From: an uncultured Lachnospiraceae bacterium
GTDB taxonomy: Bacteria; Bacillota; Clostridia; Christensenellales; UBA1242
Assembly (NCBI GenBank): GCA_964416085.1
Contig: CAYQCO010000001.1
Span: 3,424 to 67,423 of the forward strand
Direction of reading: 5' to 3'
Length of the DNA stretch: 64,000 bases
This document shows positions 5,901-62,680 of this stretch, piece after piece. Under the pieces are notes generated by a model that saw only the letters and a program-made list of their open reading frames with translations, did no database searches and had not been told where the DNA came from. A program made the position numbers and the translations under genes. Each line of letters begins with the position of its first letter. The stretch's first letter is position 1.

Positions 5901-8900
5901 ATTTTTATTACCTTGTTGAAATAACTTTCACTACTCAAATTGCCGTATGACAAATAATATGTGTAGATTGATTTTGCATTGTCGTTCTTTGTTGAAGCAA
6001 TACCTTTTTCGCTATGTCCAACCATATAATCAATGGTCTTTTGGCTTGTTGCATTGTATTCCACTTCAAGTTGACTCTTGTCATAGAAAGATATTGCAAC
6101 AAAGTTGTCTACTTTGCATATTTTGTTGCTGTCTATGATATATTTTAACAACATATCATCGCCAGAAACCTTGTTGTAACCAATCATTCCACCAATATAT
6201 TGTTGTTTGTCTTTGTCTTGGATATCAAAATATGTTTGGCTATAACACGTCTCATATCCACCACCCAAAGTTGTTCCTACAAATCCACCAATATATGATG
6301 CGTTGGCAGAAATTGATGTTTTTGAGTATGAATTTTGAATTGTTCCGTTGTAATTAACTCCGATAAATCCGCCAGCCATATTGTTGGTGTTGTTGGCATC
6401 TGTTGTACTGCGAACAAATGACAAATTGCCAAAGTTTGAATTGCTAGGGATAGGAGTTGATGTTGGAGTTGTTTTGTCAGCCAAAATATAACTTGCAAAA
6501 GCGCTGTCAATAGACTCTTGTTCGCTTGTCGCTGCACTTACTTGGCTGAATGAGATGTTGGCGTAGTTTTCGCCTATCAATCCGCCAGCAATATATGCAC
6601 CAAACACATAAGAATCTGCTCCCACAAAAGACTTCAATCTCTTGGCTGTGACTTGTGGTCCCAAATATCCTGCCACAAATCCTGCAATATCTGCTGTAAC
6701 TTGAACATTGCCGTTTTCACCAACCACAAGTTGGTTTATGTTGGTGAAGTTTTTGTATTCATTGACATCTATTACGCCTGCAATTCCGCCCGCATATGAC
6801 AATGTCTTTAAATACTCTTCATAATTATTTCCAAGCGTTGTTATCTTCTTAAATCTAGTTTCTGAAAGATATTGATTGCTTGTTGATTGTGCTTTTTTCA
6901 CCGCTGTCACGTTTACATCTGCTGACACATTGTATAGTATTGAGTCGCCAGTAACATATCCTGCAATTCCGCCTGCAAAGTTTTGAGCAGTGATTGTTGT
7001 GCTGTTGCCCTTTATTGTCACGTCAACAATGCTACTGTTGTTGATTGTTCCTGCAAGGCCACCAGAATACATCGCTTTGGTTGAAGTATAATCCATTGCA
7101 ACATAATTGACATTCAAACTCTTGACAATTGTGTTGTAGATGTTTCCAAACAATCCCAAAGTTTTAAGTTCGGCTGTCTCATAGTTTTTGATATCCACAC
7201 TAGAAATTGTCATTCCGTTGCCATCAAAGACAGTGATTGTGTTGTTTTTTAAATCCCCCAAATCATATCCTTGTGTGGTGTTGACTGTTTCTGTTGTGCC
7301 ATCATCTTTTGCAAAGTCAATGTCATTGATAAGTCTAATTGACCCACTAATAACATTTGCGTCCGCCGAAGTCTTTATACTAAATATATTATTATATTCT
7401 ATATAATTTCTTATTATATATGGGTTGTTGGCAGTTCCCAAAGCATAACCTTTGCCATATGCAAATTGATTTTTGTCATTGTCTTTTGAAACCAAATATC
7501 TTATGCTTCTTGAAATTTGGTTGGCACTTGTGAGTTCTGGCAAGAAAGTTTTGCCCAAACTAGAAGTCGTATCATTGCTATCCAAATTTGCATAATATGT
7601 CCAAACACCTTGTGTTGCACGTTCATAATTGCCATTGACAAATGCAAAGTTGTTCAAGTTTTCGCTATCCGCAAAGTTGGTGTCGTCAAGTGGGATAGGA
7701 ACATCCATACCTGTTGACTCATAACTGTAATCAAAGTTATCGCCGTCAATTTCTAGATAATAACAGTTGTTCAATTCACCAAATGACAACAATTTGTTGA
7801 GTTCTGTGCCTTCAAGTCCTACACCCACAAAAGCAAGACTTGTTGCGGTTGCGCCACCAGTTTTTGACATAGTTGACAACACAGCACTTGCGCTATAACA
7901 ACGATTGATTGATGCACCAGAATTGTTGCGATAAACAAATCCTGCCACTGCGCTTGCTGATGATGTTACAAATATATTGCTGTATGAGTTTTCAATTATG
8001 CCATTGTTCTCAAACACAAATCCAGCCGCAGTTCCTTTTGAAGAAATCTTTGTTTCTTGTCCACGAACTTGGCTTGAAGTTCTGCCTCTGCTCTTGGTGT
8101 ATGAGTTGTAAATTTTGCCAGTATTCACTGCCACAAATCCAGCAGTTTTGTTGGTGTCGTCACTCATCTCTGTGCTGAGATTTACAAGATTGGCATTTTG
8201 GAAATAACTTGAAGAAATTATTCCGCTGTTTGTTGCTGCAAGTCCACCCATAATTCCATTTGAGTTCAAACTAATTTCCTTGGTTTGATTGGTGCCAGTT
8301 TTTGTAACGTTTCCATTTGAATCAACACTCAAAGCCAAATAGTAAGGTGTCCCAACTCTTGAATTGGTTATGTTGCCTGTGTTTTGTCCAACGAGTCCAC
8401 CAATATAACTATAATTTGATTTGGTTTTTATATTGATTTTCTTTTCATTTTGAGAAGTATTAATCAATTCACTGTTGTAGATTAGTCCTGCATTTTGTCC
8501 TGCAATAAATCCAAAATGTGTAGTTGAAGTTTGTGCATTGTCGTCAGCAAGATTGACAATATAATTGCCGTTGTCGTCCACATTCCCTGCAAAATCACGC
8601 AAGTCTATTGTCAAGTTTTTGATGATACAATTTTCGCCCAAACTTGCAAACAATCCAGCACTAATTTCACTTGCCGTTGCAACACTAAAACTCTTGATGA
8701 AGATACGCTTGCTGTTGCCGTCAAGACTTGCAATTTGCGCTGTCAATGGCACCCAATCTTCAAGTGTCAAATCATTCATAAGAATATAGTTGCCACCTTC
8801 TGTCATTTGAGCCAAATCAGTCGCAGTATAAATTGGTTCTGGTTCTTCTTCGGTTGTTTCCACTCTCAAATCAAGTTTGAATGTGTATTGCAAGATTGTT

Positions 8901-11900
8901 CCAGTTGTTTCGCTATTTAGGGTTACGAATTTTATTTCAAATTTGTCATCAGCATCACTATATTCAAAACCATATTTTACTCCAAAGACTATTGTTACAT
9001 AATCTTCTCCAAGACCTGTGACATACAATTTGTTGTCCTTTGTTTCAAGTTTGTAACTATCACTTGTCCCTTCTGAGTTCTTGTATGTATCACTTTCCCA
9101 CGACTCATAAGTTTGTTGTCCAAATGAATTGTAAGTTGTGCGATAGAAGTATGAAATATAATTTGCTAAACTTGTGTTGATTTGTTCGCTGTCAAGTTCG
9201 CCGTCTTTGTTTTTCCAAACAATATCCAAACTCTTGCTAGAATTGATACCAACTCTAAACACATCGTTGGCCGTTCCGCTCAACAAAACTTCTGTTGGGA
9301 TATAATCAACTGTATAGAGCGTAATCTCTTTGGTCAAAGTGTCAGTCAACATATCTTCATTGACAACACTTATGCTGACACTCGCAACAATAGGGGCCGT
9401 CAAATCCTTTGTTGTCAAGCGCCAAGTCACCAAATAATCCCCATTGGATTGTTGTTGAATTACACTTTGAGAATAAGACACATATTTACTTATATCAGTT
9501 TCGTTTGTATTTTTCCACTCCAATTTCAATTCTGGGTTTTGATTGGTCTTGTAGCCCACAATTCTTGCACTAACTTCATAACTATTTGAAGATTTTTCTA
9601 TCAAATAGACATCATCTGCGCCTACTTTTTTAGGAGTGCCATTTGAAGACACATAAACACCTGGATTAAATTGTGTAACGAGCATTTTTGTGGCTGTTTT
9701 TTGAGTTTTTATTTCGTTTGTCATTGCGCCATTTTCGTCACGCTTGTATTCAGTTGCAACGACTGTCAAAGTGAATGTTTCGTCAAGAGCGACCGCATTT
9801 TCCAAAATTGTTCTAACATACACAACACCTGTGTAGTGCATTGTGCCGTTTTCATCAATATATGTATTTTTTACAAGTCTAAGCGAATTGCTTCCGCTTG
9901 TATAACCTTGATATGACACATAGCACTCTTTCTTTTGGTCATAAAGCATTTGTTGGAAATATATTGTATAAGTTTGACCATTGATAGTCACACTGCTTGA
10001 AGAAATCACAAGTTCATCAACTCTCGCAAAAGTTGGTTCAACATAAATCTTTGCAAGCCCACTCTTGCCTGGAACAATGATTGAAGATTGAGTTTCACTG
10101 CTTGTGTATTCAACTTCTACATTGTTTGTGCCAGTAAGAGTCGCCACACCTGACTTAAAGTTTTCTATTCTCAAAGTTGTGATTGATTGTGGTTCAAAAC
10201 TAACTCTTATGTCTTTGTGCAAAATTGTGTTGGTCTTTGGTGCAAATTCAAACACAAAAGTCTTTTCATCCACAATATCTTTGTATTTGTCTTTTAATTC
10301 AATATTGATATTAAACACATATCCAGTCTTGCTTGAATTGAGTTGATAGATTATGCTTACATTAAACATATCCCAAACAGATGACAAGTTGTAACTAGAC
10401 AAATCTTGGTCTGTTGAAAGTTTTATTTGAAGATTTTCTTTGTTTTCAAGCGTAGTTGTCAAATATTGTCCGTCAATAGCATAACTAGCAATCGCTTCTG
10501 TATCATTTTTGTCAACATAACCAGTAATCACTTCAACTTCTATATCCACTGATTGACTTGTTGCAACCTTTGTATCAGTCAAACTTGACACAATGCTGCT
10601 TGCTTTTTGATATAGTGTAACACTGAGTGTTTGTGAAGCAATTTTGTATTTATAGTTGAACAAATCTTGCAAAGTTTTTTGGTCCACACCTTCACCAGCG
10701 AGAGTATACACAAACTTTGACAAGTCAAGATAGCAATCAATAGTTATCTCGCTATTTTTCCCATTGCCCTCAAAATCTGTAACTTCAAGTTGAATATCGT
10801 CCATTGCATAATAGGTTGTTTCACCAATTGTGGTTTCATTTCCCAAAGGAGTAACTGTTATTGAACTATCTTCGTTGCTATATCCAACATACAAATAGTT
10901 GTTCAAAAGTTGGCTTGTAATATCGCCATATTTTGCCACAAGCGACAAAATCTTGCTGCTGTTGGATGTCATAGAAATATTGTTGCCACCAACAACTTCA
11001 AAACTGTCGATAGGTTCAACAGCAAATATCACCACTCTATCCAAAGCATTTGGATTGAATGTAGACACAAATTCAAGTTCTACTCTGCCAGCCTTTTTGA
11101 ATGTTATGAAGTTGCCCACAAGAGAAATCAAGTCCCCACCAGAAACAACTTCAACATAATAACTCTTGGATGCAATATTTGGCAAAACAGAAATATCCAC
11201 AAGTCCGTCAGCGTTTTTCTTAACCAAATTAAACGTCTTGTAATTTAAGAATACAATAGCAGTAGATGTTGTTCCATTTGTGAAGAATATTCCGTTGTTG
11301 TGAGTATAAACCTTTGTCTCATTTTCTGTTGTTTCTGTGCCAGTTTTGAAATAATCGTCCGCAACATTTGCAATCAAATCTGTTGCCAAAGCAAGCAATG
11401 TTGGTTCACTTTTATACACGATTACTGGAAGTCCAGAGTTGTATTTTTTATACTCATCTGTCCAGCCGTTGCTCTCTGTCCAATTAGGAATAGCAAAATC
11501 TGCAATTTCTGTTGGGTCAACCAAGTTTACTTCGCCGTCCGCTATTGTTGGCTCGCTTGTTGTCCACAATTCTTTTTCTTGTGCTTCGTCATAATAGTAA
11601 TAAGCCTTAACTTCGCCATTATAGAACAATTTGCCATAAGTCTTATCTCCCAACTTATAACCCTTTGCAAGCGAATATGTTGAATCATTTGAGTTGATTG
11701 TGAGATTTGCAAGGTTATCCACATCTGCAATACTTCCAACAAAGAATGAATTTTTGATTTCAACACTTCCGTTTGCAAGAGTTGACACACTACCACTGTC
11801 AGTTGAAATATTAACTTTTGCATAAGAACTTCTAATTTCGCCACCAGCGGCATATCCAACAAGTCCTGCAACAGATTTTTTAGCATCTGCCTTGTTGCTT

Positions 11901-14900
11901 GCAAAATTGCCCACAACACAAGCATTGTCAACAAATCCTTGAACATTGCCAACAGTGATTGTTCCGTCAGCCATTTGACCAACAAGTCCGCCGACACAAT
12001 CAACACCTTTCACAAGTCCAAACTTGTTGCTATTTCTTGAATTTTGCACAAACAAAACATAAACAGTTGTTATATCGCCAGAGTTCAATCCCACAGCGCC
12101 ACCAACGTTTTGGTTGTTGATTTCAGTTTGGTCTATATTGCCGTCATTATAAGGTCGGCCAATTATTTCGCAAGAGAATGTTGCACTATTTATTATTCCA
12201 CCATTCTCATTTCCGTTTTCATCTATTGTGGTTTTGCTTGTATTGTTACCCACAATTCCACCAAGATTTAGGTTGTTGCCTGCACCAGTTATGCTACCTT
12301 TTATGGCAACATTTTTTACCGTTCCATTGTTTGAACCAGCAAATCCACCAATATTTGCTTGATAAGTGGTGGTTATCGTAGAAATTGCAACAAAATCAAT
12401 ATCTGTATAACTTGTCAAATATTCTGTTTCATCTTGATTGAAGTCAGAATAATTGCCCACAACAATTCCTGTGTTGTCACCAATAGCACCACCGACATTT
12501 ATTGCAGTTGTTGAACCAACAGAGTTCAAAGTTACTGTCAATTTTTGGTTGAATTCTGCCATTTGACGATAATTTGAATATTGCTTCAAATCGCTATGTT
12601 GTTGGTCAAAATAATACACATTTCCAGTATTTTTGCCAATCAAAGCACCTACGTTATATGCTTTTGCACTAGTTGTGCTGTTTGTTGCAGCGATGTTGAT
12701 TGTCCCTTCAACATTTATGATTGCTGAGCAGTTGATTATTGTGCCAGCATTTTCTCCCACCAAAGCACCAATGTTTATATCGTCATTGCCAGCACCAATG
12801 TTTATGTTTATGTTGAATTTTACATTGCTCATTACAAGGTTTTGGAGTGTTCCTGAATTCTTTTCAAACAATGACAACAAATCTGTGTTGTTTATGTTCA
12901 AATTTTTGAACAAACTTTGTGTATACATAACTGTCACACCATTGCTTGCGTCATAAGATGTCATAATTCCGTTGATTGAGCCAGTGAATTCACCTTTTAT
13001 GCTTTCTTCCAATCCTGACAAATCAATGTTGTTGGCAAGCACATAGTGTTTGCTCATTGCATTAGTGATATTTTTCACATCATCCGAATCATACAAATAG
13101 AATGGATTGCCAAGTTCACCATCGCTAATATTCACAACCACATATTCAAAAATTGTATAATCTTTTTGAGTGTCGCTATATGAATCAACTGCAACAACAC
13201 GCAAAACAAATTTGCCACCTGTTTCACCAGTTGCTTTCAATTTGAATTGTTGAGAAGAATATTCTACACGCAACACACTGTCAGATATTATTCTATCACC
13301 CAAATAATCGCCGTCCGCATTGTCTTGGTCAAGTTCATAAAGTTGATAGTCAAGAAGTTTGTATGTAGCATCTGTGTTGCTTACATACGCACTAAATTCG
13401 CCAGACCTTCTTGCATCACTTTGCAGGCTTAAATTGATATTGTTGTTTTTATTGAGTCCGCGAAGTTCAATTCCTGTGGAATTTTTAAAGTCAACAACTC
13501 TAATTGTGGCAGTTACAGTCTTTGAAATGCCAAGTCCATAATATCTTAATGTAAACACCACATTGATAGCATTGATATTGTCCAAAGATTTGGTGAGTCT
13601 AAAACCATAAGTTTTTGACTCCATATCCAAATATGTCCCATTATACAAATACAATGATTCTATGCCCATTTGTGCGCCAGTGTTTTCATTGCTCACACTG
13701 ACATAATATAGGGATTTTATTTTTGAGTTTAAACTAGAATTTACACTATTTTCAATATCCTTGTCACTAAAACTGAGATAAGTTGAAGCATTGCTGTTGA
13801 AACTCAATGTAATTTCACTTGTCGCCTTGTCAGTAATCAAACTGTTGACATAATACACTTCTGAATTGCTGACAGAAAGTTGAATATTTGATACAGGTAT
13901 AAAACTTGCGATTTCAAGATACAAAACAGTTGTGTTTTCTGTGATTGAATAATTGCTTCCTGTGTTATATTTGATTGTCACTTTGAGTGCAGATGTCAAA
14001 TTGGCTGATATTGCTTGTAGATTGAATGAATAACTATTGAGCATTGTTGTCTTGAATACGTCTGCCCCATATTGACTTATTCCTGCTTTGGTTGACAGAC
14101 TCACGACACTCAATTTTGAAATTCCCACAAACTTGTTGGCGCTGTCACCATAAGCCACCACAAAGTCAGCCGAAGAATTGAATTGCATTGCATAAAAGTT
14201 GGCTTGATTGCCTGCATCATCATAATCACTCACACTACCCAAAGAAACAACATTTGAGTCGTTGGTTTTTATGGCAAAACGAGGCAATTCATCAGTTGTA
14301 ACTGACACAAAACTTATTTTTCTTGATACAACTTGCAATCCTAGCGGAGTAGTGATTGTCAGTTGTCCTGACTTGCCAGTTGCACCTTTGATATACAATT
14401 TTTTGTTGACCAAAGTTCCGCAATCAACTTCCTTTTTAAAATTAATATTGTCGCTTGACAACAAGATATCATCATTGTTGGATGAGATTTTTGTGCCCGA
14501 ATATGTTACAGTTGTTCCTTGTGAGTTTGACAATCTAACATACATCTCAACACTTTTGTCTGCTTGAATAGTTTGTGTCAAATTTTTGTCATCAAACAAA
14601 TTGTTGATAGTTGCATCCGCATTGCTTGAAGATGACACTGTGTCAATTTTTCCAATAGTGTTTAAGGTCAATGTAACTGTGATATATTTTCGGTCACTCT
14701 CTTTTGTTTCCTGCCCCTCAAAATATGCAGGAGTCGCAAGCACTTCAAAATCAATATACGCAATCTCTGGACAAGTGCCACTGCCATATTTCAAATATAT
14801 TGTGTTACTCACATTATTAAGCACCACACCAGCCCCAGCCGAGCCAAGTTGTTGGCCGTTGTGAGAATAAACATTAAGTGCGGTTTTGCTTTCGTCATAT

Positions 14901-16276
14901 TTCTTGTCATTGCTAGTATACGCTTTCATCACAATTTTGGTTGTGTCATTAGTTTTGGTACCCGAATTTATAGTCAGTTGCAAACCACTTTTGTTTTCAT
15001 AATTGTTGTAAATATTCATTGAAAGACTATCTTTGTCAACATACGCTTCTTCATTTATACGAATAAACCTTGGCAATTCTTGTCTTTTCACTTCAAAACT
15101 ATATCTCAACACGCTTGTGTCAATATTATAGTCCTTTGTTCCAGTAAATTTGTAATTTTTAAATCCAACCACAAACTCAACAATGTTGCTGTCTGTCTTC
15201 ATATATGTTTCAGCAGAGACAACCCATTGTTGTTGAGTTGCTTTTGATTCAGTCTTGCTAATCACAAGCCCATTGTAAGCACTAACACTCTCTGTCACAT
15301 CTTTGCCGTCAACAAAAACTCTTGTTTCAATCTCTTCGCTGTCAAAATTGTATATTGAATTGCTGTTGAACAATCCTGACAAAATAATGTTGGAACTGTT
15401 ATATGTTGCCAAATTTGGATATAACTCCATTTGTGTTATTTTGTTTTGCTTGTCATTTTCTGACGAGCCTGTCATATTAGATTTATAATTAGCCAAAAAA
15501 CTTGACTGGTCAATATTGTCAACAACCTTTATAGTTACATTGCACGAAATATCCTCAAAATAAACTGATGTGGCCGTCAAATTGATAGTATCGCCCGAAA
15601 ATTCTCTTGACACAGTCAATCTGTTGACATTATTGTCCGTTTCAAGAGTTACACCGTCAACTTCATCAATAGAATACACAACACCAAGTTGATTGGTTGT
15701 CATTTCGTTTTTGCCAGAATAAACTATCAAGTCGGTCAACTTGTTGAGTTCCAATGTTCCACCTTTTACAACCGCAGGAGTGTATGTATCATTTTGTGCA
15801 ATCCCCCCCAATTCAGCATAAAGGTTTATTGGGAAAGTTATCGCCTTTTTGTCACTCTTGATACTTGGTGTAAAAGACAAATTAGCACTACCAGTTGTCC
15901 AAACTTTGATTTCAAATGCTTCACCACTTGACACTGTCTTTTTTTCCAACTGCAAAGATGGTGACCCTGTGCAAGAAACAGATATGTAGTCAACGTCCTT
16001 TTTTGTTCCCTTAACATTCACCCTTATCCTTAGCGAATAATAAGGCTTTCCGCTGCCGTCTGTTTTTAAACTGTTTTCATTCAAAACAAAGTCAAGACCC
16101 TTTTCTGTATCAACCTTGGTCCACTGACTTGAACTTCCTTCATTGTCATTGTTTGACCAAAGAACATACTCGACTTCTAGATACATATTTTTGTAGTCAT
16201 CGCCGCACGCAACAAGCACCACGCTTGAAGCAATGGCCAACACCAACAAACTTAAAATTGAAAATAGTTTTTTCAT
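1..16276 (-). CDS. giant surface lipoprotein, 3' end beyond window (>5,425 codons); Ig-like repeat arrays plus six GLUG-motif modules
   Basis: Hand translation of the reverse strand from ATG 16276-16274 stays open to position 2. SD AGGGGAG is the complement of 16284-16290. The gene is absent from the ORF track because no stop lies inside the window. All six listed minus ORFs in 1-16276 end at coordinates divisible by 3, which is a different frame. N-terminus is MKKLFSILSLLVLAIASSVVLVAC|GDD. Dozens of GG[LFIV]xG..G.I.N[SC]Y motifs. Confidence 0.9.
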   Translation of the reverse strand, partial: MKKLFSILSLLVLAIASSVVLVACGDDYKNMYLEVEYVLWSNNDNEGSSSQWTKVDTEKGLDFVLNENSLKTDGSGKPYYSLRIRVNVKGTKKDVDYISVSCTGSPSLQLEKKTVSSGEAFEIKVWTTGSANLSFTPSIKSDKKAITFPINLYAELGGIAQNDTYTPAVVKGGTLELNKLTDLIVYSGKNEMTTNQLGVVYSIDEVDGVTLETDNNVNRLTVSREFSGDTINLTATSVYFEDISCNVTIKVVDNIDQSSFLANYKSNMTGSSENDKQNKITQMELYPNLATYNSSNIILSGLFNSNSIYNFDSEEIETRVFVDGKDVTESVSAYNGLVISKTESKATQQQWVVSAETYMKTDSNIVEFVVGFKNYKFTGTKDYNIDTSVLRYSFEVKRQELPRFIRINEEAYVDKDSLSMNIYNNYENKSGLQLTINSGTKTNDTTKIVMKAYTSNDKKYDESKTALNVYSHNGQQLGSAGAGVVLNNVSNTIYLKYGSGTCPEIAYIDFEVLATPAYFEGQETKESDRKYITVTLTLNTIGKIDTVSSSSNADATINNLFDDKNLTQTIQADKSVEMYVRLSNSQGTTVTYSGTKISSNNDDILLSSDNINFKKEVDCGTLVNKKLYIKGATGKSGQLTITTPLGLQVVSRKISFVSVTTDELPRFAIKTNDSNVVSLGSVSDYDDAGNQANFYAMQFNSSADFVVAYGDSANKFVGISKLSVVSLSTKAGISQYGADVFKTTMLNSYSFNLQAISANLTSALKVTIKYNTGSNYSITENTTVLYLEIASFIPVSNIQLSVSNSEVYYVNSLITDKATSEITLSFNSNASTYLSFSDKDIENSVNSSLNSKIKSLYYVSVSNENTGAQMGIESLYLYNGTYLDMESKTYGFRLTKSLDNINAINVVFTLRYYGLGISKTVTATIRVVDFKNSTGIELRGLNKNNNINLSLQSDARRSGEFSAYVSNTDATYKLLDYQLYELDQDNADGDYLGDRIISDSVLRVEYSSQQFKLKATGETGGKFVLRVVAVDSYSDTQKDYTIFEYVVVNISDGELGNPFYLYDSDDVKNITNAMSKHYVLANNIDLSGLEESIKGEFTGSINGIMTSYDASNGVTVMYTQSLFKNLNINNTDLLSLFEKNSGTLQNLVMSNVKFNININIGAGNDDINIGALVGENAGTIINCSAIINVEGTINIAATNSTTSAKAYNVGALIGKNTGNVYYFDQQHSDLKQYSNYRQMAEFNQKLTVTLNSVGSTTAINVGGAIGDNTGIVVGNYSDFNQDETEYLTSYTDIDFVAISTITTTYQANIGGFAGSNNGTVKNVAIKGSITGAGNNLNLGGIVGNNTSKTTIDENGNENGGIINSATFSCEIIGRPYNDGNIDQTEINNQNVGGAVGLNSGDITTVYVLFVQNSRNSNKFGLVKGVDCVGGLVGQMADGTITVGNVQGFVDNACVVGNFASNKADAKKSVAGLVGYAAGGEIRSSYAKVNISTDSGSVSTLANGSVEIKNSFFVGSIADVDNLANLTINSNDSTYSLAKGYKLGDKTYGKLFYNGEVKAYYYYDEAQEKELWTTSEPTIADGEVNLVDPTEIADFAIPNWTESNGWTDEYKKYNSGLPVIVYKSEPTLLALATDLIANVADDYFKTGTETTENETKVYTHNNGIFFTNGTTSTAIVFLNYKTFNLVKKNADGLVDISVLPNIASKSYYVEVVSGGDLISLVGNFITFKKAGRVELEFVSTFNPNALDRVVIFAVEPIDSFEVVGGNNISMTSNSSKILSLVAKYGDITSQLLNNYLYVGYSNEDSSITVTPLGNETTIGETTYYAMDDIQLEVTDFEGNGKNSEITIDCYLDLSKFVYTLAGEGVDQKTLQDLFNYKYKIASQTLSVTLYQKASSIVSSLTDTKVATSQSVDIEVEVITGYVDKNDTEAIASYAIDGQYLTTTLENKENLQIKLSTDQDLSSYNLSSVWDMFNVSIIYQLNSSKTGYVFNINIELKDKYKDIVDEKTFVFEFAPKTNTILHKDIRVSFEPQSITTLRIENFKSGVATLTGTNNVEVEYTSSETQSSIIVPGKSGLAKIYVEPTFARVDELVISSSSVTINGQTYTIYFQQMLYDQKKECYVSYQGYTSGSNSLRLVKNTYIDENGTMHYTGVVYVRTILENAVALDETFTLTVVATEYKRDENGAMTNEIKTQKTATKMLVTQFNPGVYVSSNGTPKKVGADDVYLIEKSSNSYEVSARIVGYKTNQNPELKLEWKNTNETDISKYVSYSQSVIQQQSNGDYLVTWRLTTKDLTAPIVASVSISVVNEDMLTDTLTKEITLYTVDYIPTEVLLSGTANDVFRVGINSSKSLDIVWKNKDGELDSEQINTSLANYISYFYRTTYNSFGQQTYESWESDTYKNSEGTSDSYKLETKDNKLYVTGLGEDYVTIVFGVKYGFEYSDADDKFEIKFVTLNSETTGTILQYTFKLDLRVETTEEEPEPIYTATDLAQMTEGGNYILMNDLTLEDWVPLTAQIASLDGNSKRIFIKSFSVATASEISAGLFASLGENCIIKNLTIDLRDFAGNVDDNGNYIVNLADDNAQTSTTHFGFIAGQNAGLIYNSELINTSQNEKKINIKTKSNYSYIGGLVGQNTGNITNSRVGTPYYLALSVDSNGNVTKTGTNQTKEISLNSNGIMGGLAATNSGIISSSYFQNANLVNLSTEMSDDTNKTAGFVAVNTGKIYNSYTKSRGRTSSQVRGQETKISSKGTAAGFVFENNGIIENSYSNIFVTSSASAVAGFVYRNNSGASINRCYSASAVLSTMSKTGGATATSLAFVGVGLEGTELNKLLSFGELNNCYYLEIDGDNFDYSYESTGMDVPIPLDDTNFADSENLNNFAFVNGNYERATQGVWTYYANLDSNDTTSSLGKTFLPELTSANQISRSIRYLVSKDNDKNQFAYGKGYALGTANNPYIIRNYIEYNNIFSIKTSADANVISGSIRLINDIDFAKDDGTTETVNTTQGYDLGDLKNNTITVFDGNGMTISSVDIKNYETAELKTLGLFGNIYNTIVKSLNVNYVAMDYTSTKAMYSGGLAGTINNSSIVDVTIKGNSTTITAQNFAGGIAGYVTGDSILYNVSADVNVTAVKKAQSTSNQYLSETRFKKITTLGNNYEEYLKTLSYAGGIAGVIDVNEYKNFTNINQLVVGENGNVQVTADIAGFVAGYLGPQVTAKRLKSFVGADSYVFGAYIAGGLIGENYANISFSQVSAATSEQESIDSAFASYILADKTTPTSTPIPSNSNFGNLSFVRSTTDANNTNNMAGGFIGVNYNGTIQNSYSKTSISANASYIGGFVGTTLGGGYETCYSQTYFDIQDKDKQQYIGGMIGYNKVSGDDMLLKYIIDSNKICKVDNFVAISFYDKSQLEVEYNATSQKTIDYMVGHSEKGIASTKNDNAKSIYTYYLSYGNLSSESYFNKVIKIQTDDKYLSTESRDISALFDLTHEKQLETFENLFMNFDDDIWEKDNKKFTPTLRDNPDLNFYQIKSESDLELIRQHPNGNFEVMGNISLSKDYEDYVLNIEFTGTMRGKLDSQGNLPKISNIKIKSTSDTTRPGAGFFKATTGANISNIDFEYQSMNLTHNKTYVGLLSSDEKGSEVTGVNISCGKSSAISGKSVQQFGGLFGDSDATICTSCSVDLSGCNFSVEGSVTNDKSAFGGLTGYAKGESTANVNSMFMNCTFTRNLESIDITNFEYVGGLAGYAENSNINTSTAKLLIAGESNSNKYVGGAVGYQHNAYLSTLDIYANINSSNPDAHIGGISGYVKNDSKEKSADISNSSARLILTHTGVVNAYVGGIAGETLSTAKIENVVSYISGSMSTNFAYFGGLIGQVGSGANLLVVNNAYAYAEGEKSNTGFNVTAENIMAGGLIGYINSNNCVISIDMAVANGGVWASKDAQKTGKLHLGGLIGAWGTSKLQETITFENGDTLTSHISNVYTTFALEYSQYKLNNGNTLNSTFATDFAVSGIVGKVSMSSDKLNESEKLSVSNVIYSSDYVLAVEEKDVFSGTINNVVADVLLRDATQDEYFDNSWTKATGHLPYIASLSDLMKKVDVLDKFEKDAGTQMAPKSITTDQTINTESYTYYLIEGKNTKSSYVDSTQQTTSCNEINLTGELNGFILGNGKTIATSEAGIIVGKSSVVSNLNIQLNNNKFTDSTGSGVVATTNNGTIFNCQVDFYFALDKDNSSNASGGGIAGVNEGNILYCYSTGSIENAGTINFSGIAKDNSGFIYSSGAVGILTGGSSSDSAGLVSNNSGTVYNCFSAVSVSTSKQDNTPISLFKENTGYVANCYYDMYVNNEDVTLKDSDNKILAKALSTKELQTGYSSKLLGNWTNYPMCSITKDETDENNETPSYTQTKLNYFNYGYPIYVIEQTWYDSNSDNKLRLDSKKGIWTGDGTEANPYLIVNAGTLESINMFTDTSDIHFRLICDIAFDSQKGVGIMKNWVGIGQGSNSGDYFQNGLTGNFAGYFAGGDRFKADWIKSSLSSTEDTDGKVPMRQIKNLNGNSLFNTILGANIQGIEFVTDDEKAKVATGGILVSSIEGAAAISNINFEGTFNLTNSGANGLVAGRLKSKATLANIAMKEVVCLTQDSFGGLIGEVEGNLIAQNITMEKGQYAFKGDSNKLSNVPANVGGLIGKLTSGSVSVTSSKLTNVQIVGQSNVGGLVGVMTSGNLTITSTGITAEFGTTSAGAMGGLVGTMENGNITINESTSTATLSNESAQSSGFEFEFGIELAGGDRVATYTGGVVGHMVQGYINGNGESVTVSQIRANKSSGYAGGVIGYMEAGTVVGVSATVGDDDTDVDYASGFGGVVGYIKSGNIGCTTDSADNAQTDVVAMEISTSGSITLDASKQVGGIAGVADGGTFGNIVLSIPTLASGGQSSSENDGLGGLIGVVNGAITLGNLTVETMKIVSDGKLSNVGGLFGVLKTNSINELADAEMSISGLTVIGTNNVGGFAGQYINDSYLVLGTQLSKLLGEEETENDKAKATGESGANAFASVVGPRNKTTSQDAMNFGGLFGYYCSGTLGYAKIDKTTTDNTANDENKEQQKIYPFVNRNSVLAEKSDSEWKGVEIKNVGGIAGLTQSINILGKNEGSVGSLDISNPASAKNEEIGKTKTIYLQNVGGIVGTFEAGATSSVTFKEVSNTGTVKGYEGVGGLMGLFSYDKSVHEFEGENEIGGTITGVNNVGGYFGYLAAELKMETKEKTSESSETDEEISISVNATVEGRINVGGYIGQVENKNVIISNVKTNIGQLTGVVNVGGYIGLVNETKAEIYVTKPKPEEDSATQEDIPTTQAIGGGTTNENDGASSSGGSGDSGNETGNESSTTTNTTIKIAGNTNVGGIVGNAFVGESDHKVLIQYVDNVKIDIEATDYNYGTKNQEDIFYM
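3038..4033 (-). repeat. GLUG module 5 of giant gene (shorter, atypical entry)
   Basis: Contains NLTGELNGFILGNGKTI..., ASGGGIAGVNEGNILYCYS, SAGLVSNNSGTVYNCFS. Exit is LLGNWTNYPM...NYGYPIYVIEQTWYD. Confidence 0.5.
4034..5728 (-). repeat. GLUG module 4 of giant gene
   Basis: Entry is LNFYQIKSESDLELIRQHPNGNFEVMGNISL. Motifs include QFGGLFGDSDATI, AFGGLTGYAKGES, YVGGLAGYAENSNI, YVGGAVGYQHNAYL, HIGGISGYVKND, YVGGIAGETLS, YFGGLIGQVGSG, MAGGLIGYINSNNC, HLGGLIGAWG. Exit is DEYFDNSWTKATGHLPYIASL. Confidence 0.6.
5729..7440 (-). repeat. GLUG module 3 of giant gene
   Basis: Entry is GTANNPYIIRNYIEYNNIF...IRLINDIDF...FDGNGMTISSVDI. Motifs include YSGGLAGTINNSSI, FAGGIAGYVTGDS, YAGGIAGVID, IAGFVAGYLG, YIAGGLIGENYANISFS, MAGGFIGVNYNGTIQNSYS, YIGGFVGTTLGGGYETCYS, YIGGMIGYN. 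Exit is FDDDIWEKDNKKFTPTLRDNP. Confidence 0.6.
7520..8840 (-). repeat. GLUG module 2 of giant gene
   Basis: Entry is EPIYTATDLAQMTEGGNYILMNDLTLEDWVPL..LDGNSKRIFIKSF. Motifs include YIGGLVGQNTGNITNS, IMGGLAATNSGIISSSY, TAGFVAVNTGKIYNSY, AAGFVFENNGIIENSYS, VAGFVYRNNSGASINRCYS. Exit is GVWTYYANLD...FLPELTS. Confidence 0.6.
8841..11410 (-). repeat. second Ig-like repeat array within giant gene
   Basis: Translation between modules 1 and 2 lacks GG motifs and reads as beta-rich repeats. Examples: ...RVELEFVSTFNPNALDRVVIFAVEPIDSFEVVGG..., ...TLRIENFKSGVATLTGTNNVEVEYTSSETQSSIIVPGKSGLAKIYVEP... Boundaries are approximate. Confidence 0.4.
11411..13125 (-). repeat. GLUG module 1 of giant gene
   Basis: Entry is GELGNPFYLYDSDDVKNITNAMSKHYVLANNIDLSG. 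Motif run includes NIGALVGENAGTIINCS, NVGALIGKNTGNV, NVGGAIGDNTGIV, NIGGFAGSNNGTVKNV, NLGGIVGNNT, NVGGAVGLNSGDI, CVGGLVGQMADGT, VAGLVGYAAGGEIRSSY. Exit is ELWTTSEP...NWTESNGWTDEYKKYNSGLPVIVYK. Confidence 0.6.
13125..16204 (-). repeat. N-terminal array of roughly 90-100 aa beta-rich (Ig-like) repeats within the giant gene
   Basis: Hand translation shows successive segments with alternating hydrophobic/polar strand patterns. Examples: ...ITVTLTLNTIGKIDTV..., ...QLTITTPLGLQVVSRKISFVSV..., ...KFVLRVVAVDSYSDTQKDYTIFEYVVVNISDG. Boundaries are approximate. Confidence 0.4.
16205..16276 (-). other. lipoprotein signal peptide with lipobox LVAC (Cys24)
   Basis: MKK- positive N-region, hydrophobic core LFSILSLLVLAIASSVV, then L-V-A-C followed by GDD. 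Confidence 0.75.
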
Positions 16277-16330
16277 AAAAACTCTCCCCTTTCTTCTTGT
16301 GTCTAATATTTAAAATATTATTTCTTATAT

Positions 16331-57751: not shown

Positions 57752-58113
57752 TTTTGTTCACCCATTATATATTTTTTATTAAAATTAAATTTTTATTTAA
57801 AAAATAATTAATTTTATTACAAAATACTATTTTTAAGTGTTTTTATTAATTAAAATATTTAAATAATATTTTTTGATTTATTTTTAATTAATTTTTTGTT
57901 TAATTAAATTTATACAATTTATTTTTTAATTTTATTAATAATATTTTAATTATTTTTGTTTTTAATTATTTTGAGTGATATATTATTGATTAGTTTTAAT
58001 TTTATCAATTTATTTTGTTTGATTATTTTTGTAAATTTTATCAAAACTATTTTTTGCAATTTGCTTTATTTTATTTATTAGATTATAATACTAATATAAT
58101 AATTGGAGAAAAA

Positions 58114-59040
58114 ATGAAAAAATTATTTGACAAATTTGTTATTGCATTAGCACCTATGGCAGGAGTTACGGATTTCGCTTTTAGAAAAATCTGTGCCGAC
58201 TTTGGTGCAGATATGGTTGTGACCGAAATGATTAGTGCCAAGGCATTTGAGCACGACAGCAAAAAGACAATCAAAATGCTTTTTGAAGCAAAGCACAATG
58301 CAAAAAAATGCGTGCAACTTTTTGGGCACGAAATTGAGCCTATTGAAAACATAATAAAAAGCGGTGCGCTTGATGACTTTGATATTATTGACCTAAATTG
58401 CGGTTGTCCAGCGCCAAAGATAGTAAAAAATCACGAAGGCAGTTTTTTGATGCAAGACATTGACAATGCAGAAAAAATCATCACAGCAATTAGAAATGCG
58501 ACTAACAAGCCTATCTCGGTAAAATTTAGGCTTGGAATTAACGGACACAACAACTATATTGAATTTGGCAAAATGTGTGAAAGATGTGGTGTGGATTTTG
58601 TCACTCTTCACGCTAGGACTCGTGAACAACAATACGCTGGAACGGTCGACAAATCCGCCTACAAACAATTGGTAGATAGCCTTAATATTCCAGTCTTTTG
58701 GAGCGGAGATATTTTGACAAAAGAAGATGTTGAATACGCCAAATCCGTTGGTTGTGCTGGGGTTATGATTGCACGTGGGGCTTTGGGCTCACCAGAAATT
58801 TTTGCCAACTTAAAGGGACAAAAATTGCCTTATTCAAAAAAAGAAGCGGTCAAACTCCACTTCAATTTGATGAGAGAATATTTAAAAAACGACAAGGTGT
58901 GTTTCAATTATTTCAAAAAACACCTTGCTTGGTATATGAAAAATCTAAAAAATGCCAGTGAACTAAAACGTCAAGCGGTCAGTGTCACCAGCATTGAAGA
59001 AACAATGAATTTGATAGACAATTTGCCAGAAGATTTGTAA
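58114..59040 (+). CDS. dusB: tRNA-dihydrouridine synthase
   Basis: SD GGAGAA. LAPMAGVTDFAFR and DLNCGCPAPKI motifs. Start trimmed to ATG 58114. Confidence 0.85.
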   Translation: MKKLFDKFVIALAPMAGVTDFAFRKICADFGADMVVTEMISAKAFEHDSKKTIKMLFEAKHNAKKCVQLFGHEIEPIENIIKSGALDDFDIIDLNCGCPAPKIVKNHEGSFLMQDIDNAEKIITAIRNATNKPISVKFRLGINGHNNYIEFGKMCERCGVDFVTLHARTREQQYAGTVDKSAYKQLVDSLNIPVFWSGDILTKEDVEYAKSVGCAGVMIARGALGSPEIFANLKGQKLPYSKKEAVKLHFNLMREYLKNDKVCFNYFKKHLAWYMKNLKNASELKRQAVSVTSIEETMNLIDNLPEDL

Positions 59041-59087
59041 GATTTTGTTTTTTCAATCGCATTATTCTACCTTGTCACATCGAAATT

Positions 59088-59345
59088 TTGTGCAACAAAA
59101 TTGAGTATGTCTGGCCTGTGGTTTATTATCGCACATTTTATTGATTGTATCAAACTATCAGCCAGATACACTCGCTTTGCTCGGTATGACACCCCACTTT
59201 GTCATACCAACGGTTGACCTTGCGAAGCACGTCAACTGTTGTGTATCTGGTTTATGATTTGGCAAGTGCATTTTGAATAGACTTGCTAAACTTTCAGCCA
59301 GATACGCAACATTTTGCTAACCGCAAAATATTGGTATGACAAATT
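59088..59345. other. structured non-coding element with nested inverted and direct repeats (candidate MITE, recombination site or ncRNA)
   Basis: The GCCAGATAC motif occurs four times in alternating orientation: 59107-59117 (reverse, 1-nt insertion), 59161-59169 (forward), 59242-59250 (reverse, as gtatctggt, one mismatch) and 59297-59305 (forward). ggtatgaca occurs at 59183 and 59333. A three-way junction is predicted at 59151-59260. Confidence 0.45.
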
Positions 59346-59355
59346 GGTTGCAAGT

Positions 59356-59883
59356 TCATTTTATTACGCAAGTAATAAAGTGCGCAAAGGCCTTACAGAT
59401 TTTTGACACATCATCGTCAAAGCATTTGTTTTCGGTCGCAAGCACAATAATTGAGCCAAGCAAATCTTCTTCTTTGACAATAGGAGCAATAAGTTGACAA
59501 CAAAAATCCGTTTCCAAGTCGTCAAAAATATCAACCATTGTGCTGCCGTCGTCAATCTTTTTTATCACAATATCTCGCTTGTAAACCAGTTCTATTGTGC
59601 TGGGATTTAAACTTTTGGCGAGATATTTTTTCTTGGTCGAAGCGATGACTTTTTCCTTGTCGCAAAGGATAATGTCGTGCTCAATCACACTAGAAAGCGC
59701 GGACATAATGCAAGCACCCCATTCACGCAAAGTGCTCATTGGAGAGTATTTGGTGAAAGTTATTTTTTCTTTTTCTACCCCTAGTTCCACTTTTTCGCCT
59801 TCTTTAATATTCAACATTTTTCTTATTTCTCTTGGGATTGCAACTCGCCCAAGGTTGTCAATACTCAAAATTAAATCATCCAT
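59356..59883 (-). CDS. spoVT: stage V sporulation protein T (AbrB-type N-terminus plus GAF-like C-terminus)
   Basis: IDNLGRVAIPREIRKMLNIKEGEKVEL is the AbrB swapped-hairpin segment. KYSPMSTL...IILCDKEKVIAS...LIAPIV..EDLLGSIIVL parallels B. subtilis SpoVT. Confidence 0.8.
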   Translation of the reverse strand: MDDLILSIDNLGRVAIPREIRKMLNIKEGEKVELGVEKEKITFTKYSPMSTLREWGACIMSALSSVIEHDIILCDKEKVIASTKKKYLAKSLNPSTIELVYKRDIVIKKIDDGSTMVDIFDDLETDFCCQLIAPIVKEEDLLGSIIVLATENKCFDDDVSKICKAFAHFITCVIK

Positions 59884-59932: not shown

Positions 59933-62656
59933 CTAGCCTTCGCCCATCAAATAACGGACATTTGGAAGTGCTTGAATGTCCACAAATTGCCTTGATGTAG
60001 GCCCAGTGATAAGGAAGCATCGGCCGGTTGGAGCAGTGACAATTCCGTCTTGCTCTTGTTGGTTGATACCGCCGGCTGATGAATAAAGTTTCAACAAGTC
60101 GCTCATATCATTTGGCGCAAGTTGGAAAATCAAACTATATTGGCTTGCGTTGATAATTGCGGCTGACCTACGCTGAATTTCCACCGTTCCCAAAAAGTCT
60201 TTGATGTTTTGTGTAATAACGATTTGCATTCCTTGATATTTACGGATACGCTTGGCCATTTCTGCCATAAAGTTAAGCGCGACAGGATAATCTGGGTCAA
60301 TAAACATATGCGCTTCGTCAACCGCCAAAACAACTTGACGTTTGATGTCGATGCCATATTCTTTTTTATACATTTCATTAAACTTTTTGTTGTTGATGAT
60401 TTCGTTGGTCAAATATTTAAAGACCAAAATCATTTGTGCATTGGCAAGACGGTCGTTTTTTGCTGCAAACAATGTTTGGAAGTTGAACGTAATCAAGTTT
60501 TCGTCAGTTGCAATAGTTGTTGGGCCGTTCCAAAGGTCTGAGTTTCGTCCGCCTGTTGCAAATTTTTGAATATAGGTTTGAAGCATTTGAAGATTTTGAC
60601 GATAATATGCGTCTTTTTCTTTTTTGAGTCTGTCACAGATAAGATTGTAAAGGTCATCAAAAATTGGATAATCTTCTGCTTTGAGTTTTATTAGGTCAGT
60701 GTTTTGGTCAATGCCTTTTTCGTGATAAAGGTCAACAATCAAAGTGTTGAGCATTTCAAACGCGTCAGAACTGATACCTTCAAGAATAACTCTAAAAAAC
60801 TGTTCCAAGAATTGCAGATAAGTGAAGAATGTCTTGTTGGATGATGCTTTTACCACATCGTCAATATTAAACTCGTCATTGGCGTCTTGGTTGACAGCAT
60901 CAAGGTCTTCAAGTGACATCATTATGTGGAATGGATTGATAATACCCATTGTGTTGGTTCCTACGTCAATAATCTTTCCACCAAGATTTCTTGTCATTGT
61001 TTCATACTCGCTTTCTGGGTCAAGAATAAACATTTTTGTTCTGTCGGCAGCAAGGTTTGTAAGCATTGTTTTTGTTGCATAGGATTTTCCTGAACCGGAT
61101 TTTCCAATAATCATCATATTACTGTTGATACGTCCAGCACGTCTGTCACGAGCAAAGAAGTCAGCAAAGACAGGATATCCCGAACTTGACGAGCCCAAAT
61201 AAAATCCATTTGGGTCTTGCATATATGATGCAACAAACGGGAAAGACGCAGCAATAGTGGTTGTTGGCATATTTCTTGACAAGTTTTTCAACTTTTCAAG
61301 ACTAGACACGTTGGAACTAACAAAAGCATCAACTTGTCGCCCAAACATATCGCTTGACCTAAACCCATTTTGTTTAAGGATTGTTTTCAACTCTTTTCTT
61401 TGTTCAGCAAGCACAGTAAAGTGAATGTTAACATCGTATAGTTGCTCATTGTTGGCTTTCAATTCTTGCAAAAGAATACGCAAACTGTCCAAATCTTGTT
61501 GCTGTTCAAGACGTTTGGATTCTGTATATGTTCTTTCAAGTTTTAGTTCTCTTTCCATAATAACTTTGTCAATGGTTCGCTCGCCCTTTTCTTTGTCAAT
61601 AGGGGTCATTTTCATACAAACCCTTGTGCCAGGGAGAGAGAATATATTGGCAGCCCAAGCATTGCCAACTGCCACTGGATAATCAGTTATGGACACTTGC
61701 TTAAACTCATTTTTGTTCAAAATCATTTTGGACACACCAAACTCAATTTTGCTTGGATAAATCCAGTTCATATAACTTGATTGTGGCATATTGTCAACTT
61801 CTTTTTCGTCAAAGACTTCGTCATAGTTAGACTTCAAGAATGACACCAAATCTCCACCTTCAAGCACATTGGCAATAATAGTTGTTTGCCCACTGCCAAG
61901 GTCACTCACAATTCCTTTTGCAGTGTCTTCAAGCCCTTGCTTGTCCGTTCCGCAAATAAGCATATAAAAGTGGTCTTGCAAAACAGGTTCGGCCTTGATA
62001 GCATTTTGAAGAGCAGCAACACGCTCCCTAAAAATCTCACTACGAGAATTCATCTCATCGTCAGTGTATTGCCCACGAGCATAAAGTTGGTTCAAAAGTT
62101 CAAATTTTTTGTCATCACTTTGAAGAAAGATGTCGAAACGCATTGGCTTTCTGGTCTTGATTATGGATATGGTTTGATAAGGTGTAAGTCGTCTAAGCGC
62201 ATTGGCAACAGTGTTGATACACCTGTCTTGTGCCTCAACTTGCATAAGTTCCAGCGCAATAGGTTGAACTTCAACAACCATACCAGAATAAGTTTGAAAA
62301 TTGATATATTTTCCCAATTCGATACCAACAAATGGCATAATTTCTTGCATTGGTCGATATTTTTTGGTCTTTTTGTTGGTCTTGCCTTTGATGTATTTTT
62401 TTCTGTAAGCAGCAAACTTAATAAGCAAAATCAAACTGCTATACACTCTCAGTCCGTCTTCAATAGGAATAAACAAACTGATACAAACAGACGCCCAGCC
62501 AATCAGCCACCACCATTTGTAAGAACCAAACAAGTTGCTAAAAAGTATGACAGCCCCAACAACAAGCCCCAAAAAGATCATAAGAATATCGCCAAGAGTG
62601 ATATTCTTGGCAAATTCAACTTTTATTCTTGTTTTGCTAGGTATATACCTAATCAT
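59933..62656 (-). CDS. type IV secretion/conjugation ATPase, VirB4/TrsE family with N-terminal VirB3/PrgI-like TM domain
   Basis: 907 aa. The N-terminus has two TM helices. Walker A is IIGKSGSGKSYATK and Walker B is VVLAVDEAHMFIDP. SD AGGAGA. Confidence 0.75.
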   Translation of the reverse strand: MIRYIPSKTRIKVEFAKNITLGDILMIFLGLVVGAVILFSNLFGSYKWWWLIGWASVCISLFIPIEDGLRVYSSLILLIKFAAYRKKYIKGKTNKKTKKYRPMQEIMPFVGIELGKYINFQTYSGMVVEVQPIALELMQVEAQDRCINTVANALRRLTPYQTISIIKTRKPMRFDIFLQSDDKKFELLNQLYARGQYTDDEMNSRSEIFRERVAALQNAIKAEPVLQDHFYMLICGTDKQGLEDTAKGIVSDLGSGQTTIIANVLEGGDLVSFLKSNYDEVFDEKEVDNMPQSSYMNWIYPSKIEFGVSKMILNKNEFKQVSITDYPVAVGNAWAANIFSLPGTRVCMKMTPIDKEKGERTIDKVIMERELKLERTYTESKRLEQQQDLDSLRILLQELKANNEQLYDVNIHFTVLAEQRKELKTILKQNGFRSSDMFGRQVDAFVSSNVSSLEKLKNLSRNMPTTTIAASFPFVASYMQDPNGFYLGSSSSGYPVFADFFARDRRAGRINSNMMIIGKSGSGKSYATKTMLTNLAADRTKMFILDPESEYETMTRNLGGKIIDVGTNTMGIINPFHIMMSLEDLDAVNQDANDEFNIDDVVKASSNKTFFTYLQFLEQFFRVILEGISSDAFEMLNTLIVDLYHEKGIDQNTDLIKLKAEDYPIFDDLYNLICDRLKKEKDAYYRQNLQMLQTYIQKFATGGRNSDLWNGPTTIATDENLITFNFQTLFAAKNDRLANAQMILVFKYLTNEIINNKKFNEMYKKEYGIDIKRQVVLAVDEAHMFIDPDYPVALNFMAEMAKRIRKYQGMQIVITQNIKDFLGTVEIQRRSAAIINASQYSLIFQLAPNDMSDLLKLYSSAGGINQQEQDGIVTAPTGRCFLITGPTSRQFVDIQALPNVRYLMGEG

Positions 62657-62680
62657 ATTTTATCTCCTATTTTATTGGGT

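Follow-up and report, generated by a model that had tools for sequence, protein, structure and literature searches.

The short non-coding repeats that most resemble the element described here are Correia/CREE of Neisseria, ERIC/IRU of enterobacteria, RUP of S. pneumoniae and bcr1 of the Bacillus cereus group. They belong to the bacterial MITEs with long-hairpin folds, which, according to a review of their shared features (PMC3184786), are non-coding, intergenic, 100–200 nt long and built of terminal inverted repeats around a core. The whole unit forms a long stem-loop or a cruciform (in bcr1, there are two separate stem-loops), internal insertions give rise to size variants, presence or absence varies between close strains, and the repeats are sometimes far better conserved than the neutral DNA around them. 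The same properties recur in the units that we analyzed within a 64-kb stretch of DNA (hereafter, the window). On the other hand, the present units differ from these families in several respects. No target-site duplication was detected, there are apparently one or two copies per genome rather than tens to hundreds, and the units carry an extra, inner pair of conserved inverted repeats. Moreover, they have no sequence similarity to those MITEs and no identified partner IS, and their host is an uncultured Christensenellales-like lineage.

Two other kinds of system deserve comparison. REP/BIME sequences (RAYT/TnpA_REP) and the PATEs derived from IS200/IS605 are biased to the gaps between convergent genes (PMC3184786). 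Like the present units, they are palindromic, lie in convergent-gene gaps and show no target duplication on insertion, and single-stranded DNA hairpins are part of their mechanism. However, REPs are 20–40 nt long, GC-rich and very abundant, whereas the present units have 120–144 nt, 38–40% GC and apparently few copies. The ends of IS200/605 elements consist of two unlike subterminal hairpins rather than terminal inverted repeats, an arrangement that is not seen in the present units, and neither an HUH transposase nor a RAYT was seen. Tandem IS dimers and circle junctions with abutted inverted repeats are known from the IS30, IS21, IS256 and IS3 families. They resemble the junction between the two units of our locus, where a right and a left end stand 8 nt apart in inverted orientation; in contrast to IS dimers, this junction comes with no transposase, its spacer has no matching flanking duplication, and single units elsewhere lack it.

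An atypical gap between convergent genes

The element fills a non-coding gap of 315 bp (59041–59355) between two convergent genes:

58114–59040, + strand: dus, tRNA-dihydrouridine synthase, 308 aa (Pfam Dus, 3.5e-72)
59356–59883, − strand: SpoVT/AbrB-family regulator, 175 aa, convergent with dus (Pfam SpoVT_C, 2.2e-15, and MazE_antitoxin)

The real start of dus is the ATG at 58114, preceded by GGAGA, and homologues of its product have 308–309 residues. The TAA stop codon ends at 59040, and the insert starts directly 3′ of it. The spoVT-like gene scored under the cutoff of the TIGR02851 model. Exact look-ups of the Dus and SpoVT proteins of the window retrieved no record, and a genome scan with Dus peptides revealed no relative.

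The initial annotation had singled out this gap as not AT-rich, unlike every other spacer. This proved accurate: its GC content is 38.4%, compared to 35.5% in the window overall and to less than 20% in each of the 16 other low-GC troughs. The longest open reading frame within the gap corresponds to 41 aa. The six-frame translation of the element, concatenated into a protein query aimed at spurious ORFs over the copies, found no homologue, and a tRNA/tmRNA scan detected no gene.

The dense self-complementarity ascribed to the gap was likewise confirmed. Fold z-scores of the whole gap are −8.0 for the + strand RNA, −6.3 for the − strand RNA and −8.6 with DNA parameters, which makes DNA and RNA folds equally extreme. 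Among 638 sliding 300-nt windows of the 64 kb, the gap stands out most by its fold (−6 SD), and the runner-up among unrelated windows reaches −2.25. A search of 59041–59355 for an intrinsic terminator (a GC-rich hairpin with a U tract) revealed no terminator-like site on either strand, and no promoter or terminator signature was consistent or shared.

The motif GCCAGATAC occurs in the 64 kb as an exact match only at 59161–59169 and 59297–59305 (2 observed versus 0.16 expected), and its inverted copies are GTATGTCTGGC at 59105–59115, with a 1-nt insertion, and GTATCTGGT at 59243–51. The four alternating copies reported initially are therefore real, their inverted members lying 1–2 nt away from the positions first given. 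A second motif, GGTATGACA, is found in the window only at 59183, 59200 (− strand) and 59333 (3 observed versus 0.44 expected).

The gap consists of two tandem units

The gap is composed of two tandem homologous units of one repeat of about 120–145 nt. Unit 1 (59072–59191) and unit 2 (59199–59342) are 74% identical and have the same order of boxes. This tandem layout, overlooked in the initial annotation, explains all four "alternating" motifs as well as both alternative folds. The parts of the insert are listed below; bit scores refer to R1, a covariance model derived from five units, which it scores at 104–126 bits.

59041–59071, no strand: left spacer, in the inserted segment but outside the inverted repeats; fast-evolving, 71% identical to its L014 orthologue
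59072–59191, + strand: unit 1, 120 nt (R1 125.9 bits; fold −36.3 kcal/mol, z −4.0)
59072–83: left terminal repeat of unit 1, TTGTCACATCGA
59084–59102: hairpin P1a of unit 1
59103–15: P2 left arm of unit 1, GAGTATGTCTGGC
59116–60: variable tip of unit 1
59152–71: conserved box of unit 1, AAACTATCAGCCAGATACAC
59161–73: P2 right arm of unit 1
59181–91: right terminal repeat of unit 1, TCGGTATGACA
59192–59199, no strand: 8-nt junction CCCCACTT, joining unit 1 at its right end to unit 2 at its left end, read from the sequence (inverted repeat I8)
59199–59342, + strand: unit 2, 144 nt, four-way junction (R1 108.3 bits; fold −63.2 kcal/mol, z −10; inverted repeats I1, I3 and I6)
59199–59210 and 59331–42: terminal repeats of unit 2, extendable to 17 nt at 59194–59210 and 59331–47
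59212–37: hairpin P1a of unit 2
59238–52 and 59296–59310: P2 arms of unit 2, with a tip hairpin at 59253–95
59311–29: hairpin P3 of unit 2
59343–59355, no strand: right spacer ATTGGTTGCAAGT, up to the spoVT stop codon; 13/13 identical in L039, altered in the L041 scar

In each unit, terminal inverted repeats TTGTCATACCGA / TCGGTATGACA enclose an inner stem, GTATCTGG / CCAGATAC, whose tip is variable. The terminal repeats are present in all five units; they are 11–17 nt long, have the consensus TTGTCATACCGA ... TCGGTATGACAA with termini TG...CA, and can be described by the pattern TTGTCA(C/T)A(T/C)C(G/A)A ... T(C/T)GGTATGACA. Helix 1, which they form, is 92.7% paired across the five units, and in unit 2 the repeats reach 17 nt with 94% complementarity. 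The second, inner inverted-repeat pair is GAGTATCTGG ... CAGCCAGATACAC, and the tip between its arms varies freely. The corresponding long stem follows the pattern G(A/T)GTAT(G)TCTGG ... CAGCCAGATAC(A/G)C, with optional side hairpins. Although all five known units share the overall fold architecture, their junctions differ: the L023 unit is a rod, unit 1 has a three-way and unit 2 a four-way junction. The inserted segment extends about 31 nt to the left and about 13 nt to the right of the terminal repeats, and the ends of the two units abut with the geometry GGTATGACA–8 nt–TGTCATACC.

Most of the pairing proposed at the outset fits this anatomy. Inverted- and direct-repeat analysis recovered the closing stem of about 20 bp (59151–71/59241–61, 21 nt, 81%), the 9-bp hairpin (59183–91/59200–08) and the repeated half-unit (spacings 136 and 150). 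The three-way junction suggested for 59151–59261 is indeed the minimum free energy structure of that sub-sequence (−45.7 kcal/mol, z −8.1), but it represents an alternative pairing between units, whereas the structure of the full element uses pairing within units. The "outer 24-bp inverted repeat" did not hold up, being weak (about 67% complementary, as counted by hand) and merely reflecting the homology between unit 1 and unit 2.

Filled, scarred and empty sites in relatives

Contigs of relatives were reached through homologues of Dus and SpoVT. By nucleotide identity of dus to the window, they fall into outgroups (70–77%) and in-clade relatives (81–87%). The state of the dus–spoVT site in these contigs is as follows:

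L009 (outgroup): gap of 23 nt
L016/L017 (outgroup): gap of 12 nt (L016 1269–1280)
L010–L013 (outgroup): dus and spoVT overlap by 4 nt, a gap of −4 nt (L010 6927–6930)
L003–L008: start of the insert present
L014/L015: unit 1 complete
L039/L040 (spoVT side; same sample series as L014/L015): right half of unit 2, with different sequence before it
L034–L038: empty site TAA-ta-TTA, 2-nt gap (L037 809–810)
L041/L046: 45-nt scar

Inside the clade, three lineages are thus filled (the window, L003 and L014 together with L039), one is scarred (L041) and one is empty (L037). The left spacer is missing from the L037 empty site TAA-ta-TTA and from L009, L016 and L010. Unit 1 matches its orthologue in L014/L015 at 98% identity in the left block, 76–78% in the tip and 94% in the right block, and the right half of unit 2 is identical to that of L039 at 54 of 55 positions. 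Since the sequence that precedes this right half in L039/L040 is a different one, the arrangement in that lineage is unlike the one in the window.

The scar of L041 consists of window positions 59041–47 joined to 59310–55 and retains the P3 hairpin and the right terminal repeat. It is a deletion between ATTTTG microhomologies. We considered the reverse, namely that the 45-nt spacer is ancestral and the remainder was inserted with duplication of ATTTTG. This was rejected, as it would need a pre-existing perfect 17-nt partner of the left end of unit 2.

In a neighbor-joining tree of dus (927 nt, no bootstrap), both the scar and the empty site are nested inside the filled clade, and a single insertion with later, independent deletions is thus the most parsimonious history. 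Taken together, the orthologous sites show that the insert entered a very short convergent gap. By this history it did so a single time, in the common ancestor of a small group of uncultured Christensenellales-like Clostridia, and in different descendants it has since been rearranged, cut to the 45-nt scar or lost completely.

In the outgroups and in L037, the convergent dus and spoVT either overlap or lie 2–23 nt apart, leaving no room for terminators between them.

Copies at unrelated loci

Homologues of the unit were sought with an exact three-box pattern in 185,579 species genomes. Among chance matches, there were two true homologues, one per genome. The first, in an uncultured Eubacteriales MAG (L020), lies a few nucleotides downstream of a DUF6273 gene; over the 5′ two-thirds of unit 2 its identity is 93%, whereas its 3′ end is of the unit-1 type. 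A body of one type with the end of the other suggests recombination between subfamilies. The second copy, in a Ca. Onthoplasma MAG of the Christensenellales (L023), is located between fmt and a radical-SAM gene and is more diverged and rod-like. Because the pattern was built from three of the boxes, their conservation in L020 and L023 was partly imposed by the search, yet the left terminal repeat, the AAACT.T. extension and the GAGTAT arm lie outside the pattern and are conserved in both copies too. The orientation of the element relative to the flanking genes differs among the three loci.

Two initial assignments at L023 had to be withdrawn. The neighboring gene for a 308-aa protein, taken for dus, is fmt, and a similarity between the left spacer and the L023 flank turned out to be, at that locus, the T-rich reverse complement of the ribosome-binding region of the downstream gene.

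Other searches were negative. There is no second locus within the 64-kb window, and an R1 scan of about 350 kb, comprising the window and related loci, detected no further copy. Pattern matches in IMG/VR were chance matches inside coding regions, as checked by reading, blastn and the covariance model. None of the five matches in JGI metagenomes was homologous, and BLASTN against plasmids and phages found no match. Of the extra copies by which the MITE option was to be judged, there were single ones at unrelated loci of two other genomes and none in the rest of the window. Overall, the copy number seems low. Target-site duplications were sought at three independent sites with all boundary offsets, and this revealed only inconsistent 2–4-nt matches.

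Assembly behavior bears on copy number as well. In Logan contigs (k=31) from 5+2+7 samples, breaks occur inside the element at fixed points. The contigs of five samples (L003–L008) end exactly 30 nt after the start of the left terminal repeat, those of two samples (L014/L015) end at the end of unit 1, and two contigs on the other side (L039/L040) end 127 nt from spoVT. For the scar-bearing strain, dus-side and spoVT-side contigs from seven samples overlap by exactly 30 nt but remain unjoined. Because contigs that break at fixed points reflect branching of the de Bruijn graph, we infer that the 30-mers at these points have other sequence contexts in the samples, either further copies or co-existing alleles. 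Multiple copies are thereby supported indirectly.

Three minor features came up in the same analyses. In L020, about 60 nt upstream of the element copy (1885–1945 approximately, − strand reading), there is a GC-rich dyad, gcgaccgcgggg ... ccccgcgaccgc, which could be another repeat or a terminator. At 1799–1830 of the same contig (− strand reading), the left terminal repeat is doubled directly, as TTTTGTCATACCGAAAC and, 25 nt on, TTAGTCATACCAACGG. R1 also gave a weak match (21.5 bits, E 0.009) inside spoVT of the scar-bearing strain (L041 3241–3343, L042 3241–3343 and L043 1933–2035), with no counterpart in spoVT of the window; this match within a coding sequence is probably spurious.

The boxes are conserved beyond the flanking genes

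For an estimate of constraint, the window was compared with the L014/L039 organism. The following identities were obtained:

dus: 82% at all positions, 61% at third codon positions
spoVT: 83% at all positions, 66% at third codon positions
left spacer: 71%
unit-1 tip: 76%
boxes (terminal repeats, P1a, P2 arms, unit 2 right half, right spacer): 140/144 (97%)

Tip and spacer of the element combined are 74% identical, and the boxes differ significantly from these variable parts (Fisher p = 3e-7). At a neutral identity of 0.66, the probability of observing at least 140 of 144 identical positions is 1e-20. The constancy of the boxes stands out, as neutral sites are near saturation at the same divergence. 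The scarred strain provides a second comparison: its 45 nt differ from the window at 8 positions (hand alignment), whereas the same 45 nt in the intact L039 show no difference. Such a pattern points to boxes held constant by selection or by gene conversion with other copies. Box identity of 97% against 61–66% at third positions does not fit a dead transposon copy and is the chief ground for keeping readings of the unit as a functional module in play.

A search of the window against Rfam at the gathering threshold found no match, and at E<=10 the best hits in 58900–59500 were plant miRNA models with 18 bits. In a covariation test of five sequences, 91.7% of cells were paired and two compensatory pairs were observed, a number equaled by 48–81 of 500 shuffles. 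For a strand bias of G-U versus A-C pairs, the alignment offered too few informative columns. The Rfam and covariation checks proposed at the outset therefore yielded the compensatory changes, though not above shuffles, and no known family. Stems are nearly invariant in sequence, whereas loops and junction architecture vary, and the right arms and the box AAACTTTCAGCCAGATAC are better conserved than their partners. Judged from alignment, this combination of conserved stem sequence, free loops and stronger conservation of right than of left arms suggests DNA repeats recognized by a protein.

A MITE-like repeat as the preferred reading

We lean, with moderate confidence, towards a MITE-like, non-autonomous family of mobile palindromic repeats, present here as a tandem dimer. 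The family has no match in Rfam or in plasmid or phage records, and a literature search for the box sequences returned unrelated primers only. The units agree with the description of MITEs in PMC3184786 in size, lack of coding capacity, terminal inverted repeats and hairpin fold. Past mobility, another hallmark, is indicated by filled and empty orthologous sites together with copies at unrelated loci. The hallmark that is missing, at all three independent sites, is the target-site duplication. A MITE was among the options offered initially, next to an ncRNA and a recombination site, ICE end or oriT. Empty sites in the outgroups, decay and loss inside the clade, and homologous units elsewhere all favor it, whereas the ICE end and oriT did not survive.

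How such a repeat would move can be proposed in outline. The window encodes no transposase or integrase. The conserved outer and inner repeats are most likely binding sites for a transposase or recombinase, which another element of the genome would provide in trans; a partner IS or ICE would then carry ends reading TGTCATACCGA. The potential to form hairpins or a cruciform would follow from the nested layout of the inverted repeats. Incidentally, the insert may provide a hairpin, in RNA or DNA, to a convergent gene pair otherwise devoid of terminators. If MITE-like, the element adds a family for a poorly studied, uncultured lineage of gut Clostridia, which is useful for annotation and not surprising. 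It would also account for the recurrent assembly break and for the odd GC-normal spacer.

The picture changes if the conservation of the boxes is due to selection rather than gene conversion, in which case the unit would be a functional RNA or DNA module of unknown type. Broadly stated, the units could form a new class of functional structured modules, either RNA or a protein-bound DNA cruciform or recombination site, under purifying selection for the host or for the resident conjugative element. We regard this as a minority possibility. The active form would then be the dimer, with its units in tandem and their ends abutted.

A more specific proposal, and in our opinion also an unlikely one, is a novel family of structured ncRNA, that is, a multi-stem sRNA of about 120–145 nt or a 3′-UTR element of dus, encoded on the + strand, selected by the host and occasionally moving. 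It would agree with the extreme fold, better on the + strand (z −8.0 versus −6.3) and reaching −10 in unit 2 alone, with boxes 97% identical between lineages whose synonymous sites are at 61–66%, and with a GC content like that of genes, although spacers of this genome otherwise stay below 20%. The 8 changes per 45 nt in the destroyed L041 copy, versus 0 in intact L039, and the two compensatory pairs point the same way. However, there is no Rfam match even at E<=10, and covariation does not exceed that of shuffles (48–81/500). Conserved stem sequences with free loops are the opposite of what is typical for RNA families, and the junction architecture (rod in L023, three-way in unit 1, four-way in unit 2) is not retained. 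Nor is there a consistent promoter or intrinsic terminator, or a consistent orientation to the flanking genes over the three loci. Moreover, close relatives have lost the element twice and can thus do without it, and L039 retains a perfect right half of unit 2 despite lacking the sequence with which it would pair.

Still more doubtful is a DNA module for recombination or protein binding, in which the inverted boxes would be sites for a site-specific or DDE recombinase, for instance of the adjoining Mycoplasma-ICE-like system. The abutted ends GGTATGACA–8 nt–TGTCATACC would then resemble the junction of a circle or the core of a lox-like site. Conservation at the sequence level that is asymmetric, favoring the right arms and the box AAACTTTCAGCCAGATAC, would be expected of such a module, and so would the 11–8–11 geometry of the junction and the fold z of −8.6 with DNA parameters. 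In addition, the neighboring VirB4 is of the Mbov_0397 ICE family (563 bits), through which the conjugative system might be linked to the recombinases of Mycoplasma ICEs. Contrary to this proposal, L020 and L023 carry single units and hence lack a junction of abutted ends, the surroundings of the copies revealed no recombinase gene, and the T4SS-like block is syntenic and fixed whatever the state of the element.

That the element is an ICE end, an attachment site or an oriT bounding the T4SS element, as the initial annotation had ventured, is very improbable. The argument for it is proximity, with a VirB4-like gene one gene away. Relatives with and without the element all have the order dus > < spoVT < VirB4-like < next gene, down to 70% nucleotide identity of dus and at gaps of −4 to 23 nt, including those where dus and spoVT overlap by 4 nt. 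Because gene order is constant irrespective of the insert, the insert does not delimit a mobile T4SS element; the other copies have no T4SS nearby either, one of them lying between the housekeeping genes fmt and radical-SAM. A false lead, that the element marks the boundary of a conjugative element, is thereby removed. Finally, a decayed coding gene, which the initial annotation had named as an alternative and which would explain GC at the coding level, or a purely local palindromic duplication without relatives, is hardly credible at all: there is no ORF longer than 41 aa, the six-frame query found no protein, relatives have just 2–23 nt and no gene at this position, and homologous units exist at unrelated loci.

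Other features of the window

The VirB4-like gene encodes 907 aa and matches NF045975, of the Mycoplasma-ICE family, with 563 bits against a cutoff of 590. The T4SS-like block spans 59933–64000 of the window (− strand), 7713–12801 of L010, 1878–7125 of L016 and 229–2952 of L034. Since the VirB4-like gene and the large gene that follows it are found beside spoVT in every relative, the block seems to be fixed in the chromosome of this Clostridia lineage. The remainder of the window is core chromosome, including recD2, a spo0A-like gene, recR, dnaX, addAB, mfd and pth.

The AT-rich intergenic spacers of the window (16 troughs) have 6–20% GC, compared to about 36% in genes. One of them, the 362-nt divergent spacer between a murJ-like gene and dus (57752–58113), is nearly pure A/T, with 6–10% GC.

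At the start of the window (1–16309, − strand), a frame without stops extends past the edge and comprises more than 5,436 codons. Its N-terminus, MKKLFSILSLLVLAIASSVVLVACGDD, resembles a lipoprotein signal, and the frame is probably the gene of a giant surface protein, which would account for the fact that no ORF of at least 100 aa was listed in this region.
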